A stretch of 32,000 bases of DNA from Akkermansia muciniphila ATCC BAA-835 (GCF_000020225.1 NC_010655.1:1140001-1172000), one strand, 5' to 3'; shown: positions 6,758-32,000, numbered from the stretch's first letter. Translations and numbers: made by a program. Notes: a model not told the origin generated them from the letters alone.

Positions 6758-8524
6758 ATGATAAATATGTCAGTTATCAAAGCCTTTCTCGTCAGTCCTC
6801 TGAAGTGGCTCCGCGTGACGGTGGCCGTCATTTTCTTTATTGGGATTGCATACGCTTTTCTGCACCACATTCCCGCGTGGAACGTGCCGAACATGACGGG
6901 GGGCGGAGAGGGGATGGAAGATTCCTTTTCCCTGGCGCGGTGGCAATTTGTGCCGTCCGTGCTGGGGACCCTGAGCGGGGCAGCCGTTTCCGCCGTGATT
7001 CTGGGGGTTTTGCTGCTGCTTACGCTGCTGTTCGGCCGCGTATACTGTTCCTTCATCTGCCCGCTGGGGATTCTCCAGGATATTGTCTTCAGAATCCGCC
7101 GCTGGCTGGCGCCGAAGCGTTTCCTGAAATTCTCCCGGCCTGTGCCGTGGGTGCGGTATGGGGTGCTGGCATTGCTGGCCGCCTGCTGCGTGACGGGGCT
7201 GGCCGGTCTGTCTCTGAATTGGCTGGACCCTTACAGCATTTTCGGGCGCATCATGTATGTGCTGGCATGGCCGGCCGCCATTTGGAGCAATAACCTGCTG
7301 GCGGCGGACAGTTCTTCTGCGGACCTGGTCCAGATGGATTATTTCCCCGCGGCTTTCCCGGTTCTGCTGGCTTCCGCCGGCATGCTCGGCCTGGTGGCCG
7401 TCATGAGTGCCTGGAAGGGGCGCCTGTATTGCAATACGGTATGCCCCGTCGGCACGCTGCTTGGCCTGCTTTCCCGTATCTCCCTTTTCCGGCTGGGCTT
7501 TGATCCCGCCTCCTGCAAGAAATGCGGCAAATGCGTCAAATCCTGCAAGGCGCAATGCCTGAACCTGAAGGAATACAAAATAGACTCCTCACGCTGCGTG
7601 GCGTGCTACGATTGCGTGCGCTCCTGCAGTGAGGGGGGAATACGCTACCGCTGGTTTACCAGGGCCCGTCAACTGGTTCCGGCCCAAAAAAAGAAGGCTT
7701 CCCCGGATACCGCCCTCTCTTCTTCCGCCGCAGTTCCCTCCATTGCCGGGAGTTCCCGCCGCCAGTTCCTGGAGGCTACTGCGGCCGGGCTGGCTACGGC
7801 CGCCCTTTCCGGATGCCGGGGAGATGCCGCCCGGAAGCTGGACCCCACCCAGTGCGTTCTTCCTCCCGGAGCCGGTTCCCTGGAACGTTTTCTGGATATC
7901 TGCACCGGCTGCCAGATGTGCGTTGCCAACTGCCCCACCCATGTGCTTCAGCCTTCATACCTGCAGCTTGGCCTGAAGGGATTCATGAAACCCCGGATGG
8001 ATTTTGCCACCAAATACTGCCTTTATGATTGCCACCGGTGTGCGGAAGTCTGCCCCACGGGGGCCATACGCAGGATGCCTGTTACCGCGGAAAGGGATAC
8101 TGAGGGAATAACAAAAGATACTACGCGCATTGCCGTGGCCCGGTTTTACGTCTGCCGCTGCCTGGTTGCCCGGGAGGACATGGATTGCGGAGCCTGTACG
8201 GAGCATTGCCCCACCAAGGCCCTTTACACGGTGCCCTATATCGGGCGTGACGGCCAGGAGCACCGCCTGCCCAGGCTGGATCCTTCCCTGTGCATCGGCT
8301 GCGGCGCGTGCGAACACGCCTGTCCCGTTACCGCGGAACGGCCTGAGGAACGCGAACGCCGGAACTCCTGCGATTTGTGCGAGGAAAAATGCGAGTTCGG
8401 AAGGCGGCGGGAAATGCCCCCCCGGGCGTTGGTGGTCCGTGCCGTAAATCCCCAGCAGAAAGCTGTTAAAAAGTTTGAGGACAAAGCTGTGGATCCGGTG
8501 GGGGATGCGGATTTTCCGTTTTGA
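6758..8524 (+). CDS. membrane polyferredoxin, NapH-like N-terminal half fused to NapG-like 4Fe-4S C-terminal half
   Basis: Two CxxxCP(L/V)G motifs within TM segments (YCSFICPLG, YCNTVCPVG). Six CxxCxxC(xxx)C(P) clusters: CKKCGKCVKSC, CVACYDCVRSC, CTGCQMCVANCP, CHRCAEVCP, CGACTEHCP, CIGCGACEHACP. Start could be GTG 6725, ATG 6758 or ATG 6767. Confidence 0.8.
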   Translation: MINMSVIKAFLVSPLKWLRVTVAVIFFIGIAYAFLHHIPAWNVPNMTGGGEGMEDSFSLARWQFVPSVLGTLSGAAVSAVILGVLLLLTLLFGRVYCSFICPLGILQDIVFRIRRWLAPKRFLKFSRPVPWVRYGVLALLAACCVTGLAGLSLNWLDPYSIFGRIMYVLAWPAAIWSNNLLAADSSSADLVQMDYFPAAFPVLLASAGMLGLVAVMSAWKGRLYCNTVCPVGTLLGLLSRISLFRLGFDPASCKKCGKCVKSCKAQCLNLKEYKIDSSRCVACYDCVRSCSEGGIRYRWFTRARQLVPAQKKKASPDTALSSSAAVPSIAGSSRRQFLEATAAGLATAALSGCRGDAARKLDPTQCVLPPGAGSLERFLDICTGCQMCVANCPTHVLQPSYLQLGLKGFMKPRMDFATKYCLYDCHRCAEVCPTGAIRRMPVTAERDTEGITKDTTRIAVARFYVCRCLVAREDMDCGACTEHCPTKALYTVPYIGRDGQEHRLPRLDPSLCIGCGACEHACPVTAERPEERERRNSCDLCEEKCEFGRRREMPPRALVVRAVNPQQKAVKKFEDKAVDPVGDADFPF

Positions 8525-8830
8525 AAACGGCTGGCGGTTTGGAAGATGATGAAATAAACGCTCCCGGAGGCTTCAAACCTCCCTTTCGGGAGGGCTGTGT
8601 CTGTCCATCCGGTTTTTCGGGGGAATTCCGTGCAGCCCGGTTTGCGGCACGGATACGGCCGCGGGGGATGCCGAGATGAGCGGGGGCAGGAGGAGCCTGA
8701 CCGCGGGAGCGTTCCCGCGGCTGGCAGGGAAGGTTTCCGGAGAGCATGTTCTCCGTTGCTGGCGGGATAGAGTGCAAATGCCCGATTTTCCTTGATGATG
8801 CGGAAGTTGATACGTTAAAGTAAAAGAACC

Positions 8831-25849: not shown

Positions 25850-26419
25850 ATGGAAAGCCTTTCCGCCTTTTCTTCCATGAGCGACCTGCCTTCCTTTTCC
25901 CGTGACGATATCCGCTATGCGGCGGAGATGACACGGGTGGTGTATGAACCGGACCGCCGCATTGATACTTTTGGCGATACCAGGTTTAATTTTCTTCTCC
26001 TCAGCGAACTGATGGATGAGGTGAACGTGGTGCGCGTGCGCAGCGGCTGGGTGGAAGCGGAGAAACCGAAAATCATACGGCCTTCCATTTACAATGAAAT
26101 CAGTACGGAGGGGTTTTCCGGAGAAGCCAAGCGCTTTTTTGACTGGCTCTCCAAAAACGGGCCAGGCTTTTTGACGTTGCTGGAATACGGGTTCAGGTTC
26201 AAACGGTCGGAGGTGAGCGAGGAAATTCTGCATGAACCGCTTGATTCCGTGCGCGGCCGGCTGCTGGACCAGGTGCGCAATGGAGAAGATACATTTATGG
26301 CTCTCATTGAGGGAGTGGATGACGCATGGGAGGTCTCCCTCTTGAAATTCACGGTGGAAATGATACAAAAATCCCATGAAATCAATATCTTTGACTTCAA
26401 GCGCAAAGGTCTTCTTTAG
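25850..26419 (+). CDS. hypothetical protein
   Basis: 189-aa ORF with coding-like composition and no recognisable motif. The first ATG sits at the end of the acpP terminator, so the start may instead be the Met at 25877. Confidence 0.55.
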   Translation: MESLSAFSSMSDLPSFSRDDIRYAAEMTRVVYEPDRRIDTFGDTRFNFLLLSELMDEVNVVRVRSGWVEAEKPKIIRPSIYNEISTEGFSGEAKRFFDWLSKNGPGFLTLLEYGFRFKRSEVSEEILHEPLDSVRGRLLDQVRNGEDTFMALIEGVDDAWEVSLLKFTVEMIQKSHEINIFDFKRKGLL

Positions 26420-27152
26420 CCTTTTGGCGGCGGCTTTCTGTGTCCAGGGAGTTTTGGCGGACGGAGAAAATTATTCCCTCTGGCCGCGCCGTCCGGAGGC
26501 CCTTGCTGAAGCCCGCCGCCTGATGGACTGCGGCAGTCTGCCAAAAGCTCTGGAACTGCTGCAGCCTCTGGCGGAACAGGGAGGCGTGGTGGGGAAAGAG
26601 GCGAAGGAACTCATCGGAAGGCTGCGCATCCGCCAGTTGCTGGATCCCAACGGACCGGACGTGAAAAAATATACCGTACGGAAGGGAGATTCCTGGATAC
26701 GCATGGTCAGAAAACTGGGTTGCTCTCAGGCCATGGTGGTTCACCTGAACGGTTTGATGGATATTCCCGCTCTTCATGCGGGAGATGTATTCAAGTACCG
26801 GCCTCTGGATTTCCATGTAGTGGTGAACGTGCCGGAAAAGGAAATCTGCCTTTACGACGGGACGGATTTTGTCAAGGGATACCCCATCCTCTCCATGAAG
26901 GACGGGGGGAAAAAGAATGTGGAAACGACCGTAAAGGATGAGCAGGCCCCCGTGTCCATCTACAGCAGGCAGTTTCCTTCTGCGGATAAGACGCTGGTGC
27001 TGGCGGCGGGAGGCTATGTCATTGACGCTGCCCGCGGTACGCCCCGCTCGCCTGGGTTTTATCTGAGCCGGCAGGACTGCAATGAACTGGCCATGCTGAC
27101 CAGGCCGGGAACGAAGGTGACTATCCTGAGGGGGAAAGGAGAGGAACCGTGA
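26376..27152 (+). CDS. exported LysM domain protein with a YkuD-like domain lacking the catalytic His/Cys
   Basis: Signal peptide ([16 protein letters not shown]) and LysM motif ([17 protein letters not shown]...LNGL...LHAGDVFKY). The C-terminus aligns to the YkuD pattern but reads GFYLSRQD where SxGC(I/V)R is expected. Confidence 0.7.
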
Positions 27153-27601
27153 GGCTGGTTATTCAGCGTGTCAGTAAGGCCGCCGTTCATATCGGCGGTG
27201 TTTGTGCGGGGGCCGTGGGGCCCGGTCTGCTGATTCTGGCGGGCATTGAAGAGGCGGATACGGAAGAAGATGTGCGCTGGCTCGCCAACAAGGCGGCGGC
27301 CATGCGCATTTTTTCCGACGCGGACGGAAAGATGAATCTTTCCGTAAGGGAAGTGAGTGGAAGCGTGTTGGTGGTGAGCCAGTTTACGCTGCATGCCTCC
27401 ACCCGGAAAGGGAACAGGCCCTCTTTCATCCGCGCCGCGAGGCCTGAGCGGGCCATTCCCCTGTATGAGCTGTTTAAGAAGGAATTGGCGTCTTTGCTGG
27501 AAGGCAGGGTGGAAAGCGGCGAATTCGGCGCGGATATGCAGGTTTCCCTGATTAACGACGGCCCGGTGACTATTTTCATGGATTCCAGGAAAAGGGAATG
27601 A
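27149..27601 (+). CDS. dtd: D-aminoacyl-tRNA deacylase
   Basis: MRLVIQRV, VVSQFTL and NDGPVTI motifs. GTG start overlaps the upstream stop codon (GTGA). Confidence 0.9.
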
Positions 27602-27769
27602 GAGAAAGGATCTTATATATTTAACTTTGCCCCGGTTTCCTGCTTTCTCTCTATCTCCATATAAACATAGAAAAATATTGCCGATAGATCTGTTGCTCCT
27701 CCTGAAAATCTGTCCTTGAGAAAGGAGGAATATTACGTCTGCACAGATCCGAACCTGGCCCTGAAATAG

Positions 27770-28213
27770 CTAAGGCCGGAGTTCTACTGGCTGGACGAAA
27801 TTTTCCGTAGCAGCCGCCTGTCCATAGGGAGAGTAATTGTAAGCCGCCGCGATCGTTCCCTGTGCGTCGAAGACCTCCGACACATTCTTGTTGAAGTCCA
27901 CGCCGTAGCAGTACAGGGAAGCGCCCTGCACGAGGGCCAGGGGGCGGGTGGCCACCGGTTCCAGAGGATCCCACAGCAGTGTCCGAAGCACGTTCCGGTT
28001 GTCCAGCATATCCAATGCCGCTATCTGCAAATACCCCCGGTACAGGTACCGTTCGTGGCTGGCGACCGTGCCGTTTTGGGTCACTTTCTTCATGTAGCGG
28101 CGTCCCAGGTAGTCGTAGCCGCATTCAATAATCGTGTTTCCATTCCGGCTGGTGAAGCTCACCGCGCAGTTGGCCGTATTATACAGATCGTCCAGCCACC
28201 CTGAAAGGCTTAA
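27770..28213 (-). pseudogene. orphan Rhs/YD core C-terminal fragment, no start codon context and no toxin domain
   Basis: The open frame begins just after a stop at 28214-28216. It encodes SLSGWLDDLYNTANCAVSFTSRNGNTIIECGYDYLGRRYMKKV...YLYRGYLQIAALD...RPLALVQGASLYCYGVDFNKNVSEVFDAQGTIAAAYNYSPYG. It is a near-copy of 30509-30701, and it stops shortly after the point where the other copy continues. Confidence 0.8.
27822..28013 (-). repeat. direct repeat copy A (Rhs core segment)
   Basis: Aligns base-for-base with 30509-30701. By eye roughly nine positions in ten are identical; this was not computed. Confidence 0.85.
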
Positions 28214-28580
28214 TTAACGTCTGAGTTGAGAGTAGAATGGGTAATACTGGTGTATACTGATTAAGTTTACTGATCATCTAAATATCTTTCCTTTACATTT
28301 ATAGCCCTTTGTTTTCTATATACTCTGTTATTTTTTTCTTATTCTCCATATTCGAGTAGCCGTATTCAAAATGCAGAATAAACATCAAAGTGAAAAATAT
28401 AATATTATTATTTCAGAATCCAATTAGAAGAGAAAAATTTGGAACAAATTAATATATGGCTATGGCAGTTCATGCAAATCCTGTTTTTAAGAGTACCTAT
28501 ATTTTCCCATAGAATAGCTAGCCAGCAGCATAGATTTAAAAATGTACAAATTGCATATGACGTATGTTTTTTAATATAAA

Positions 28581-29027
28581 TTACATATCTAATATTAAAT
28601 AAATAAGCGAATACATAAAACCTGAAAAAGCCATTCCTAAAAGAAAAAATTGTACTTGTTTTAATCGTCTGAAAGACATATTTCCTCGGATAGCAATTAC
28701 AAGATAAAGTTCATCTGGATTCCAATGCTCATTTATCTTACAAAGAACGTATACAACTATAGCCACACAGGACATCAATAATAATGTGTACACAGAATTT
28801 AGGAATATAGCGATCACAACGCATCCGCCAGACTGGTACAGAGCTAACAGAATGAGTGCACATAAAACAATGAGAAATAAAGATCCTATAATTTCAGCAC
28901 TGATTTTGTATTTTCTAACTATATTCTGAATTTGTCTCCTTTTATAGAACTTTTCTTCTTGCTTTGTCTTTGATGTTAACAAACACATCAAAAAGAACGA
29001 AATGAGAACCCACAGTATAGAAGACAT
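28581..29027 (-). CDS. AT-rich 4-TM membrane protein, candidate orphan immunity protein
   Basis: 148-aa ORF with four hydrophobic segments (ILWVLISFFLMCLL, IIGSLFLIVLCALILLALY, VVIAIFLNSVYTLLLMSCVAIVVYVL, VQFFLLGMAFSGFMYSLIYLIL). It sits in the immunity-gene position of a decayed cassette. Confidence 0.55.
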   Translation of the reverse strand: MSSILWVLISFFLMCLLTSKTKQEEKFYKRRQIQNIVRKYKISAEIIGSLFLIVLCALILLALYQSGGCVVIAIFLNSVYTLLLMSCVAIVVYVLCKINEHWNPDELYLVIAIRGNMSFRRLKQVQFFLLGMAFSGFMYSLIYLILDM

Positions 29028-29042
29028 AAATCTACATTTTTA

Positions 29043-29333
29043 GTTCAAGACAGGCCATGGTCTAAGATGCCCTTGAGGCAGTGATGAGTGTCTGGTTGCC
29101 CGAGGCGTTGTATTGAGGCGCAAAGGAGGGGCCCGTTTTCTTCTTCGATGGCGGTGTGCTGGTTGAATTCGTTGGTCACATAGGAGAGTTCTTCGGCCGG
29201 TTCCCGTGCCGTCTTGTGGTTGCCGATGTTTGTCGTAACTGTAACCGTAGGGGGCGTCGCCCAGGGTGGTAGCGGTGAGTTCGTTTCTGCCGTTGTAGCT
29301 AAAGTTGTTGCTGTGAACAGACTCCGTTCCCTA
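29043..29333 (-). pseudogene. frameshifted Rhs/YD-repeat core remnant
   Basis: GC-rich block. The minus strand reads NNFSYNGRNELTATTLGDAPYGYSYD in one frame, NIGNHKTAREPAEELSYVTNEFNQHTAIEEENG in a second (an extra A in gacAAAcatc) and PSFAPQYNASGNQTLI in a third. Stops bound it at both ends. Confidence 0.7.
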
Positions 29334-29389
29334 GTGCGGCCCGGCGTCTAAAAAATCATAGTTTATGAGTAGATCATGCTCTCATGAAG

Positions 29390-29839
29390 TCAATCTAGAG
29401 TTGACATTTGTAGGTACAATTTATTGACATATTTTGCTTGCTCATCAAGTATATTTATTAAATAATGAATTTCTGATCTTTCTGATTTTATCTGATCTTT
29501 CATATTTAACGCTTTAGCTGCGTCTCTTTGATCTTCTATCCAAGTATCTATTTTTTCTTTTCTTTGTGGATCGTCTTTCTTGAGGTATAAATTTATAATT
29601 TCTAGTTTTTGAAATTTTATAATATCATTTGGAGTGACATCAAATTTAGAAAAAATATATTTTCCTGGTGCAAGGTTTCTTAAAGAACATGCTTGATTTA
29701 CAAACCATTCTGTATAAATGAGAGCTAAATTTGTATTAATATTTGATTCATTGTTTTCTTTTCTGTTAATGTTTTTCTGCTCAATGTTGGAGCAACTTGG
29801 GTATAATAACATGAACACTAAATATAATATTTTATTCAT
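29390..29839 (-). CDS. exported (possibly lipoprotein) candidate immunity protein for CT2
   Basis: 149-aa AT-rich ORF starting 3 nt after the CT2 stop codon. N-terminus MNKILYLVFMLLYPSC looks like a signal peptide with a lipobox-like Cys. Confidence 0.65.
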   Translation of the reverse strand: MNKILYLVFMLLYPSCSNIEQKNINRKENNESNINTNLALIYTEWFVNQACSLRNLAPGKYIFSKFDVTPNDIIKFQKLEIINLYLKKDDPQRKEKIDTWIEDQRDAAKALNMKDQIKSERSEIHYLINILDEQAKYVNKLYLQMSTLD

Positions 29840-29842
29840 TTT

Positions 29843-30697
29843 TTAATTTTTGGGAGGTGTTGTGAGAACCCATGATTTCGGGTTTTGAGGATTATCGACT
29901 TTATATAATATTATATTGCTTTTCTTTATTACGCTGTGGCATTTCCATTTTCCCCTATTACAGGAACACCATTTATAAGCCTGAACACTTACCCCTAATG
30001 CGCTCTGAGATCTGCCTTCTCCTCTCGAAGGTCGGATTTTTCTGTTGAAAGTATCGCCTGTTTGACTATAACATGTTTTGTTATAACAATCAAACCAAGT
30101 ATAAACTACATAACAACAATTTTCTTTACATATATTATTATGATCACATTCAGATGTGAAATTAGGACTTTTAACCGATGCTTTAACATTAATTCCTTTT
30201 GTTCCTGCATCCTGAATGATCGGATGTTCCTGTGATCTTTTGCATTCTTTGCAACATTTTGAACATGGATCCCCTGTTTTTATAAACCCCTTTTTTAACC
30301 CCAAAGCATCAAACTTATCTTGAGGGCTGTTCCCGAGGAACGCATATAAATTCCACCCCCCTTCTTCAGCAATGGGATCGCGGTTGATCCATCTGCCGTC
30401 TTTTGGGTTGTAAAAGCGGTAATTGTAATAGACCAGGGAGGATTCTTCGTCGTGCATCTCGCCGGACCACTGGACGGGCTGGACGAGGCTGCCCGTACTG
30501 GTCACGGCCCCATAGGGGGAGTAATCGTAAGCCGCCGCGATCGTTCCCTGTGCGTCGAAGACCTCTGTGACATTCTTGTTGAAGTCTACGCCGTAGCAGT
30601 ACAGGGAAGCGCCCTGCACGAGGGCCAGGGGGCGCGTGGCCATCTCTTCCAGAGAATCCCACAGCAGGGTGCCAAGCACGTTACGGTTGTTGATCAT
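29843..30697 (-). CDS. orphan Rhs C-terminal module: core fragment plus cysteine-rich toxin domain CT2
   Basis: Encodes ...RPLALVQGASLYCYGVDFNKNV...YYNYRFYNPKDGRWINRDPIAEEGGWNLYAFLGNSPQDKFDALGL, then 150 AT-rich-encoded residues with 13 Cys. Homology to the Rhs core extends to ~30715, where an in-frame stop lies. The only start is an internal ATG (MINN...). Confidence 0.8.
   Translation of the reverse strand: MINNRNVLGTLLWDSLEEMATRPLALVQGASLYCYGVDFNKNVTEVFDAQGTIAAAYDYSPYGAVTSTGSLVQPVQWSGEMHDEESSLVYYNYRFYNPKDGRWINRDPIAEEGGWNLYAFLGNSPQDKFDALGLKKGFIKTGDPCSKCCKECKRSQEHPIIQDAGTKGINVKASVKSPNFTSECDHNNICKENCCYVVYTWFDCYNKTCYSQTGDTFNRKIRPSRGEGRSQSALGVSVQAYKWCSCNRGKWKCHSVIKKSNIILYKVDNPQNPKSWVLTTPPKN
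30351..30454 (-). repeat. direct repeat copy C (Rhs core terminus)
   Basis: 104 nt aligning without gaps to 31897-32000. Most positions are identical by eye. Confidence 0.85.
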
Positions 30698-30701
30698 ATC
30701 C
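30509..30701 (-). repeat. direct repeat copy B (Rhs core segment)
   Basis: Partner of 27822-28013. Confidence 0.85.
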
Positions 30702-30910
30702 TGCGACGCTAGTTACAAGTAGCTACGGTCATTCTATTTAAGGATTTTTAGGGAATCCACATTTTTTATGATTTTTTGTCATCTTTGATACAATTGTTCT
30801 GATACTATTATATCATTGGAAAATCTTCCGATTCAATTCTCTTCCTGTATTCTTTATAATACACTAGCTTCTTATAAAATAAGTCTGAAAAGATTTTTTT
30901 CATGATTATT

Positions 30911-31213
30911 TCAATTAGAATCAGATTTATTTTTTATTTTTTTCAAGACATATGTTATTCTGAAACATTCAATGACTATAATGAGATAACCAAGAATTAA
31001 TACTGTATATGATATTAAAAGTTCATTCGAAAAGTTTTCCCATAATAGATTTATACCATGATACATTGTTGACAAAATTCCAATTATTCCAGAGATCAGA
31101 AATAAATAAATTGTGAGTTTGATAATTGGAAAAGGGAAGTTATTAAATGAAAAATTAAGAGTATTTTTTTTAACCAAACAAGAATTCTTAAAAATAGGAT
31201 TACAAAAACACAT
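30911..31213 (-). CDS. small membrane protein, candidate immunity protein for CT1 (possibly frameshifted; see findings)
   Basis: 100-aa AT-rich ORF with two TM segments (IIKLTIYLFLISGIIGILSTMY, LLISYTVLILGYLIIVIECF). An overlapping 57-codon ORF starts at 31269 in another frame and meets it at an A8 run. Confidence 0.55.
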   Translation of the reverse strand: MCFCNPIFKNSCLVKKNTLNFSFNNFPFPIIKLTIYLFLISGIIGILSTMYHGINLLWENFSNELLISYTVLILGYLIIVIECFRITYVLKKIKNKSDSN

Positions 31214-31298
31214 CCATAAACTAATTCAAAATATTCATATACAGTTAAAGGAGACTCAGGGTAAATCATAATACAGGTAACTAATTATATTTCGTTCA

Positions 31299-32000
31299 TT
31301 ATTTAGACCATATTTTTATATTTTCATTAAAAGATTTGTTAACAAGTTCTTCGTTTTGATCTATGATAAATGGGATTTTTAAAGTAGCGTCAATCTTAAT
31401 ATATTCCGTTGCATCTAAAGTTAAATATATTGGTTTTGCGTTCAAAGTTAATCCAGAACTTATCTTAAAATCGATAGAATAAGATGCTTGTATATAAGAT
31501 GATAGTGTAATGCCTGCATCAATTCTGTGAGAAAATCCTAATAATTCTTCCCGATAGGATGTTAAAGTTTTGCCATTACAATTGTCAATTTTAAGTATTT
31601 TTTCATTACTTAATCCAGCAATCATAGTTTTTAAAGAATATTCAATATCAGGAAGAATAGGCCACCATTTTTGTTTAATTTTAAGCCCTATACCTACACC
31701 TATACCAACATCTGTTCGTAATTTTGCTTCAATGCATACACAATTTTTCTTTTTTTCTATTGATATACTTCCCTCAATAATAAGAAGAATGGGTATGTAA
31801 CCCGCAGGAATAGTCATTGTGTAGCCAAATTCGTTAGTTTCTTTTCCGAGATAATCAATAGAAAATACCACTCCATTATCAACAAACCCGTACAAATTCC
31901 ACCCTCCCTGTTCAGCGATGGGATCCCTATTGATCCACCTGCCGTCTTTGGGGTTGTAAAAGCGGTAATTATAATAGGCCAGGGTGGGTTCTTCGTCGTG
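31299..32000 (-). CDS. C-terminus of an Rhs/YD-repeat protein with toxin domain CT1 (5' end beyond the window)
   Basis: The minus-strand frame is open from 32000: HDEEPTLAYYNYRFYNPKDGRWINRDPIAEQGGWNLYGFVDNGVVFSIDYLGK, then ~180 AT-rich-encoded residues. The M at the start of track ORF 31299-31895 is really an in-frame TTG Leu. Confidence 0.85.
   Translation of the reverse strand, partial: HDEEPTLAYYNYRFYNPKDGRWINRDPIAEQGGWNLYGFVDNGVVFSIDYLGKETNEFGYTMTIPAGYIPILLIIEGSISIEKKKNCVCIEAKLRTDVGIGVGIGLKIKQKWWPILPDIEYSLKTMIAGLSNEKILKIDNCNGKTLTSYREELLGFSHRIDAGITLSSYIQASYSIDFKISSGLTLNAKPIYLTLDATEYIKIDATLKIPFIIDQNEELVNKSFNENIKIWSK
31897..32000 (-). repeat. direct repeat copy D (Rhs core terminus)
   Basis: Partner of 30351-30454. 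Confidence 0.85.

Follow-up and report, generated by a model that had tools for sequence, protein, structure and literature searches.

Organisation of the rhs locus

The window analysed here is a 32,000-nucleotide (nt) stretch of DNA from Akkermansia muciniphila ATCC BAA-835 (NC_010655.1:1140001-1172000), and unless a different record is named all coordinates are those of the window. Its right-hand end, beyond the gene dtd, is very probably the distal part of a polymorphic toxin locus of the Rhs/YD-repeat type, and it is on this that the explanation favoured below is built. Read along the minus strand, the end of the conserved Rhs core is followed by a predicted C-terminal toxin domain (CT1), a candidate immunity gene (Imm1), an orphan module (orphan 1) in which a core tail is joined to a second toxin domain (CT2), a second candidate immunity gene (Imm2), a core relic (relic A), an AT-rich insert and a second core relic (relic B). 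The division is visible in base composition across the window, with a guanine-plus-cytosine (GC) content of 53–61% in the core pieces as opposed to 23–33% in the toxin and immunity parts. The main rhs gene is flanked by succinate dehydrogenase/fumarate reductase-type genes on one side and by dtd on the other. An earlier note, made from this sequence without knowledge of its origin, had guessed at a Verrucomicrobiota gut commensal as the host, and rightly so: the window matches the complete A. muciniphila genomes CP174100.1 and CP024738.1 at 100% identity for 12,158 nt, and the genotype of the locus is that of the type strain.

The window holds the last 53 codons of the main-gene core (31842–32000, minus strand), which match TIGR03696 at 48.5 bits (E 9e-13) and end in the motif ...RDPIAEQGGWNLYGFVDNGVVFSIDYLGK. 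The gene runs on past 32000, and in L012, a record with 100% identity to the window, the full open reading frame (ORF; L012:3610-9399) encodes 1929 residues (ACD04812.1, B2UQS7_AKKM8, "YD repeat protein") with matches to RHS_repeat (PF05593, 90.1 bits) and YD_repeat_2x (TIGR01643, 65.5 bits) in repeats that lie outside the window, as well as a TIGR03696 core at residues 1674–1748 (62.6 bits). The Rhs reading put forward in the note, including its expectation of a YD-repeat protein beyond the window edge, is thus borne out, since both the partial main-gene end and the core tail of orphan 1 (76.5 bits, E 1.6e-21) score above the TIGR03696 cut-off of 32.5 bits. Searched against PDB sequences, the core end finds solved chains of the Rhs, teneurin-like, Tse5 and TccC3 kinds, with 8h8a (E 2e-17) in first place.

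The core is repeated within the window. A minus-strand peptide, HDEE(P/S)(T/S)L(A/V)YYNYRFYNPKDGRWINRDPIAE(Q/E)GGWNLY, is encoded twice, as the note had observed and translation confirms, reading from 32000 and from 30454, with its YYNY...NLY portion at 31976–31890 and 30430–30344. The last conserved residues of the ORF at the window end are HDEEPTLAYYNYRFYNPKDGRWINRDPIAEQGGWNLYGFVDNGVVFSIDYLGK, and the second copy of the peptide, HDEESSLVYYNYRFYNPKDGRWINRDPIAEEGGWNLYAFLGNSPQDKFDALGL, lies inside a 284-residue ORF at 29843–30697. The repeat is well beyond chance, as 391 nt of the orphan core (30339–30729) align to the main gene with 86% identity (E 1e-128, self-BLAST). In both copies the conserved sequence stops at a D(A/Y)LG(L/K) motif and gives way to unrelated AT-rich sequence, again as described in the note: homology to the main gene ends directly after DYLGK, with CT1 beginning at 31841, and that of the orphan directly after DALGL, with CT2 beginning at 30295. 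The motif reads SPQDKFDALGL (P-x4-D-A-L-G-L) in orphan 1 and VVFSIDYLGK in the main gene, where the Asp and Gly are retained, and in each the Asp of RDPIAE lies 23 residues from the motif Asp.

Orphan module 1 (ACD04811.1; 29843–30729, minus strand) comprises the core tail (30296–30729, 86% identical to positions 8423–8813 of L012) and CT2 (29843–30295), and its ORF starts at the ATG at 30697. CT2 has 150 residues, of which 13 are Cys, and is strongly basic (26 Lys and Arg against 11 Asp and Glu); in a word-indexed homologue search its relatives were confined to Akkermansia. We considered and rejected an HNH-like assignment (CxxCCxxC ... DHNN ... CC), as the residues of the pattern stand too close together and no profile supports it. 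The ORF for Imm2 (29390–29839, minus strand, 149 residues) starts 3 nt past the CT2 stop, in agreement with the note, which had placed a small ORF 3–30 nt beyond each toxin. The same did not stand for CT1, where the conserved Imm1 starts 85 nt past the stop and an ORF of 57 residues that begins about 29 nt past it (31096–31269) is in another frame. The N-terminus of Imm2, MNKILYLVFMLLYPSC, reads like a lipoprotein signal, although some gene callers begin the gene nine codons later. If Imm2 is exported, as it appears to be, the target of CT2 would be periplasmic or in the envelope, where a lipoprotein-like Imm2 might block it; this is the weakest inference of our account, and we put it at somewhat below even.

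The note could place neither the toxins nor the immunity candidates in a named family, and this holds against Pfam, NCBIfam and PDB sequences. Neither CT1 nor CT2 has a match in any of the three (CT1 was also run as a family profile against PDB), and Imm1 and Imm2 have none above the cut-offs in Pfam and NCBIfam. The best family score for any of these four, or for a 148-residue ORF in the AT-rich insert, is 14–15 bits (DUF5095, cut-off 27).

Comparison of strains shows CT1-Imm1 in terminal, orphan and duplicated positions. In the type-strain genotype the cassette closes the full-length gene; it stands as an orphan behind a short core tail in L001, L003, L007, L017 and L025, and twice in tandem in a metagenomic contig (L006:1-2386) with a 391-nt core tail between the copies. 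Wherever it is found it is 98.8–100% identical, whereas the adjoining core is merely 85–100% identical, and judging from gene arrangement CT1 is passed on together with Imm1, and CT2 together with Imm2 (99–100% identity), in every strain context examined. The block from CT2 through Imm2, relic A and the insert to relic B is unchanged in every strain seen. At the same dtd-proximal site, L017 (GCA_002885315.1) carries extra modules, one of which is a Pfam Ntox16 toxin with a DUF6714 partner, and in L026 and L021 relic B continues to a complete core end followed by another toxin ORF (358 residues) and an ORF of 266 residues. In yet another strain CT2 forms the end of a 620-residue partial Rhs protein with a continuous YD shell (P0065, WP_343023923.1), so that in this strain CT2 is put to use as the tip of a long Rhs. 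As far as sequence comparison can tell, the pattern is one of classic C-terminal displacement, as established for enterobacterial rhs loci.

Short contigs bearing this rhs gene at 97–100% identity (L029, L030, L031 and L035) also occur in metagenome-assembled genomes (MAGs) labelled Alistipes, Oscillibacter, Clostridiales and Oscillospiraceae, and one protein of the orphan-1 cluster (P0063) is labelled Rikenellaceae. The foreign labels on the rhs contigs most likely reflect mis-binning of repeat-bounded contigs.

As a genomic feature the locus is an ordinary textbook Rhs array. Its genes are already annotated in GenBank as YD repeat or RHS repeat-associated core proteins, and PMC11923206, PMC8920140 and PMC4960237 deal with Akkermansia Rhs toxins: in A. 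muciniphila the Rhs/WapA genes have been annotated and remarked on for their variability and a possible part in competition (PMC8920140, PMC11923206), and YD proteins are present in its membrane proteome (PMC4960237). For these reasons we see in it a further example of a known weapon and not the undescribed system that the note had proposed. By established Rhs biology, the YD shell would enclose CT1, and within it the Asp of ...RDPIAE... together with the Asp of ...IDYLGK would cleave CT1 off. Immunity-type genes at the locus point to bacteria as the target, and the exported protein would kill Akkermansia cells that do not carry Imm1. Recombination over the 0.3–0.8 kb of shared core would then put an orphan cassette into the expressed gene, with the old cassette displaced downstream.

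The putative toxin domain CT1 and Imm1

CT1 (31299–31841, minus strand; 180 residues plus the stop codon, GC 25–30%) carries GIGVGIG and CxC motifs. A word-indexed homologue search returned relatives in Akkermansia proteins only, and a HMMER scan of 1.84 billion representatives found four distant relatives at 28–35% identity (E about 1e-5 to 1e-6), to which a profile search added a fifth; all five consist of an Rhs core tail and a similar domain. A CT1-family profile had no match in the genome collection. By its sequence relationships, then, CT1 belongs to a tiny unnamed family. The residues that are invariant in its alignment are the CxC/CC pair, one Ala and, among the Gly residues, several of a G-x-G-x-G-x-G motif and one of an AMLAGLG-like motif, and across the six members there is no invariant His, Asp, Glu, Ser or Lys, that is, no typical catalytic residue.

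What the domain may look like is suggested by the period-2 hydrophobic moment of CT1, which is strong (z=5.5; 0 of 1000 shuffles came as high), is also seen in its relatives (z=6.1 in P0140 and z=2.4 in another) and is not found in CT2. AlphaFold run on CT1 alone gave a model of unusable local confidence (pLDDT 41.7). With an 11-row alignment, AlphaFold 2 produced an all-β model of six long strands (pLDDT 52.9), for which the top Foldseek matches in PDB are all membrane β-barrels or β-pore formers (best E 0.017, template-modelling score at most 0.41). As no match is significant, we take this result as a hint of long β hairpins.

Imm1 (30911–31213, minus strand, 100 residues) has two predicted transmembrane segments, at residues 26–51 and 61–91 by hydropathy. 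The 100-residue form is the commoner one in the database; in some strains there is a form of 151 residues that starts within the last CT1 codons and overlaps the CT1 stop (P0045). Small ORFs for polytopic membrane proteins lie behind the toxin in three distant CT1-family members. At two distant loci the toxin is followed directly by an ORF for a polytopic membrane protein of 117 or 119 residues with three to four predicted transmembrane segments, and these two are homologous to one another (30% identity, E 2e-5).

Taken together, the period-2 pattern, the β model, the want of catalytic-type residues and the membrane ORFs downstream point to a membrane-active toxin. We give about an even chance to the proposal that CT1 is non-enzymatic and β-rich, inserts into membranes or forms pores, and is blocked in the membrane by Imm1, in a mode analogous to that of Tse5 and Tsi5. 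Tse5 (RhsP1) of Pseudomonas aeruginosa is a pore-forming Rhs toxin, and Tsi5, the protein that gives immunity to it, has two transmembrane segments (PMC9637101, PMC10684867). As with that pair, CT1 is a domain of no enzymatic family in an Rhs shell and Imm1 is small with two predicted transmembrane segments, and the Akkermansia core end aligns to the Tse5 chain 8cp6_B (E 5e-9). In contrast to Tse5, CT1 matches nothing in PDB by phmmer or family profile, although the Tse5 chains deposited there may omit the toxin domain; the C-terminal domain of Tse5 is predicted to be helical (PMC9637101) whereas CT1 is predicted to be all-β; and Tse5 depends on VgrG4 and the H1 type VI system for its delivery. 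The likeness is by analogy a functional one, not family membership.

Several findings pull against a membrane-inserting CT1 neutralised by Imm1. Period-2 amphipathicity is known in soluble β sandwiches too, the confidence of the CT1 model is low, and no Foldseek match to it in PDB reaches E <= 1e-3. Imm1 has no detectable similarity to the membrane ORFs beside the distant CT1 relatives, and the extension that would make up its 151-residue form is interrupted here by three stop codons (31214–31330, minus strand). Against the wider account of the locus it counts that the main-gene motif, DYLGK, is without the Pro residues that a canonical PxxxxDPxGL would have.

CT1 could instead be an enzyme of a new fold, be it a nuclease, a lipase or a peptidoglycan hydrolase, in which case the membrane ORF would be unrelated or an immunity protein of another type. 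We consider this rather unlikely but deserving of attention, given that most characterised Rhs toxin domains are enzymatic (PMC11923206) and that the CT1 structure model is poor and returns no significant fold match. An enzyme would be hard to reconcile with a six-member family in which only Cys, Gly and Ala are invariant, with the long amphipathic β strands and Gly-x-Gly-x-Gly-x-Gly motif of CT1, and with the polytopic membrane partners at three distant loci of the family.

Two of the distant CT1-family toxins (L027:1089-6126 and L028:120-6013) are encoded by short orphan-like ORFs with about 45–70 residues of Rhs core. The one in L027 adjoins SIR2_2 and HerA-like genes and the one in L028 primase, integrase and antitoxin genes, neighbours which suggest that the CT1-type cassette also moves in mobile or defence islands.

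Export and comparison with known Rhs systems

The note had attributed the uncertainty over delivery to the window edge, yet with the full N-terminus in hand there is still no recognisable route. The N-terminus of the main Rhs protein, MNPPHRSSSAHRSAVPAYRKWYFGSGASQ..., has no signal peptide and no hydrophobic stretch, and its upstream in-frame extension is polar too. In the N-terminal 550 residues we found no PAAR, VgrG or other delivery domain in Pfam or NCBIfam and no relative in PDB, the best match being FlgD_ig at 19 bits, below the cut-off. All homologues of this part of the protein are from Akkermansia, Akkermansiaceae, Verrucomicrobiales and one Candidatus Spyradenecus MAG. There are no secretion genes within about 10 kb of the main rhs gene in either direction: the succinate dehydrogenase/fumarate reductase-type genes lie upstream of it, and downstream follow dtd and, among others, genes for an acyl carrier protein and pantothenate kinase. 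The gene has its own 550-nt upstream region, which follows a gene with ferredoxin-type domains and in which a terminator-like hairpin can be read; in a promoter and terminator scan of the locus the signal was not above shuffle expectation. Nor is there a conserved accessory or secretion gene upstream of the homologous rhs gene in eight Akkermansiaceae loci, where the neighbours are differing and unrelated housekeeping genes.

The first 25 residues of Akkermansiaceae Rhs proteins contain a motif, P-x-Y-(R/K/H)-K-W-(Y)-F-(G/D)-S (L012:3610-3700, L032-L034, L037, L038), which on its sequence is a candidate export signal.

From this we infer export by a route other than recognisable PAAR/VgrG or Sec pathways, for which outer-membrane vesicles are the leading published hypothesis: the vesicle fractions of an AmII strain show an enrichment for Rhs proteins, and delivery by vesicles has been proposed (PMC11923206). 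Two points in that study count against extending the proposal to this locus, namely that the vesicle Rhs is AmII-specific, is absent from AmI strains and is not the gene described here, and that the authors themselves say that vesicle delivery is without direct evidence.

A conventional type VI effector, with the PAAR/VgrG partner and apparatus encoded elsewhere in the genome, seems very improbable: although most studied Gram-negative Rhs toxins use type VI secretion (PMC11923206) and the inspection covered about 10 kb to either side, the N-terminal 550 residues match no PAAR, VgrG, delivery domain or PDB entry, the adjacent genes are of the succinate dehydrogenase/fumarate reductase type and dtd, and homologous N-terminal domains are confined to Akkermansiaceae and related Verrucomicrobiales, where each locus has unrelated housekeeping genes for neighbours. 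In the literature we found no statement either way on type VI secretion in Akkermansia. A. muciniphila is not known to have a type VI cluster.

Apart from export, the resemblance to the enterobacterial rhs loci of E. coli, Salmonella and Dickeya is close. There too, the YD shell leads into a TIGR03696 core that closes with a DxxGL-type motif; the sequence then changes abruptly to a variable, AT-rich toxin part with a small gene behind it, and the rhs-CT/rhsI arrays contain orphan modules with a core tail only and cassettes whose position varies by strain (Jackson 2009, Koskiniemi 2013 and 2014, cited in PMC8920140 and PMC4960237). They differ in that the Akkermansia locus has no PAAR, VgrG or EagR context, its N-terminal 550 residues are lineage-specific, its main-gene motif is without Pro and its host is a Verrucomicrobiota gut anaerobe.

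WapA of Bacillus subtilis has a Sec signal peptide and cell-wall-binding repeats. Like the Akkermansia protein it is a YD-repeat polymorphic toxin with an immunity gene, and it is type VI-independent, but a hydrophobic N-terminus and cell-wall-binding repeat domains are both absent from the Akkermansia protein; the name WapA is nevertheless the one used for Akkermansia Rhs genes in PMC8920140. TcC proteins (TccC3, YenC2) also form an Rhs cocoon with an autoproteolytic core end, to which the Akkermansia core end aligns at E 1e-5 to 1e-6, but there are no TcB or TcA genes near the Akkermansia locus.

Put in its fullest form, our proposal is that CT1 represents a new family of β-type membrane-inserting Rhs toxins neutralised by small polytopic membrane proteins, and that an Akkermansiaceae-specific Rhs protein carries it out of the cell independently of type VI secretion, for example in vesicles. 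So stated it is tentative, and we think it unlikely to hold as a whole. If it were true, a new CT1 family and swappable orphan cassettes would help to explain the exclusion of strains and clades in the human gut. A. muciniphila is a leading candidate probiotic, and one clade usually dominates per host. A 2025 study linked clade exclusion to Rhs-rich vesicles and gave no toxin activities, immunity pairs or export route (PMC11923206). The type-strain locus supplies defined candidate pairs (CT1/Imm1 and CT2/Imm2), natural examples of cassette switching and an N-terminal domain that has no known trafficking signal. Should CT1 be a β-type pore former and export type VI-independent, the Rhs repertoire would be widened in a phylum that has hardly been studied for Rhs.

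Core relics and neighbouring genes

The two further core pieces that the note had placed downstream of orphan 1 are real. Relic A (29065–29330, minus strand) is a pseudogene piece, a frameshifted fragment of the YD-repeat core that is 82% identical to main-gene positions 8005–8269 of L012 and whose reading frame shifts among all three frames. Relic B (27785–28195, minus strand, within an ORF at 27770–28162/28213) is 88% identical to positions 8268–8679; it is in frame, stops at ...VQPV ahead of the TIGR03696 part and has no toxin domain, and it has no Pfam or NCBIfam match above the cut-offs. Between them lies the AT-rich insert of 869 bp (28196–29064, minus strand, GC 25–36%), the ORF of which (28581–29027) encodes 148 residues with about four transmembrane segments and is conserved across many A. 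muciniphila genomes. No Pfam or NCBIfam match above the cut-off and no toxin partner were found for it, and from its sequence it is possibly a stranded immunity gene. In main-gene coordinates the two relics abut (8005–8269 and 8268–8679), and where they meet each retains its own diverged version of one ~25-nt stretch. An AT-rich gene could have been inserted in one orphan core, or two orphans could have been trimmed to the same point.

It might be argued from these pieces that the whole locus is a decaying relic with no role in competition, its orphans and relics being pseudogenes and its main Rhs a surface or "sugar-binding" structural protein. The frameshifts of relic A, the shortened and toxin-less relic B and the interrupted longer form of Imm1 in this strain would all fit with decay, and some records do say "sugar-binding protein". 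There is a proteomic point on either side. From the numbering, the main gene is probably Amuc_0983, the sole "YD repeat protein" with a locus tag in range, and the product of Amuc_0983 has been found in the whole proteome, which speaks against decay, and was not detected in the outer-membrane fraction, which counts for it (PMC4960237 supplement). We nevertheless consider decay of the locus very unlikely, as the 1929-residue ORF is intact and identical in at least 10 contigs, complete genomes among them, the core retains both Asp residues and the TIGR03696 domain, and CT1-Imm1 and CT2-Imm2 are kept paired and move between strains as units.

Past relic B lies the convergent dtd (27149–27601; ACD04810.1), which matches Tyr_Deacylase at 191 bits. 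Rfam and tRNA scans of the window gave no match. Between the acyl carrier protein gene and dtd are two overlapping conserved ORFs on the plus strand, 25850–26419 and 26376–27152, of 189 and 258 residues; neither belongs to a Pfam family, and the second has a sub-threshold NCBIfam match to the LIC_10271 family cell wall hydrolase (18 bits, cut-off 180).

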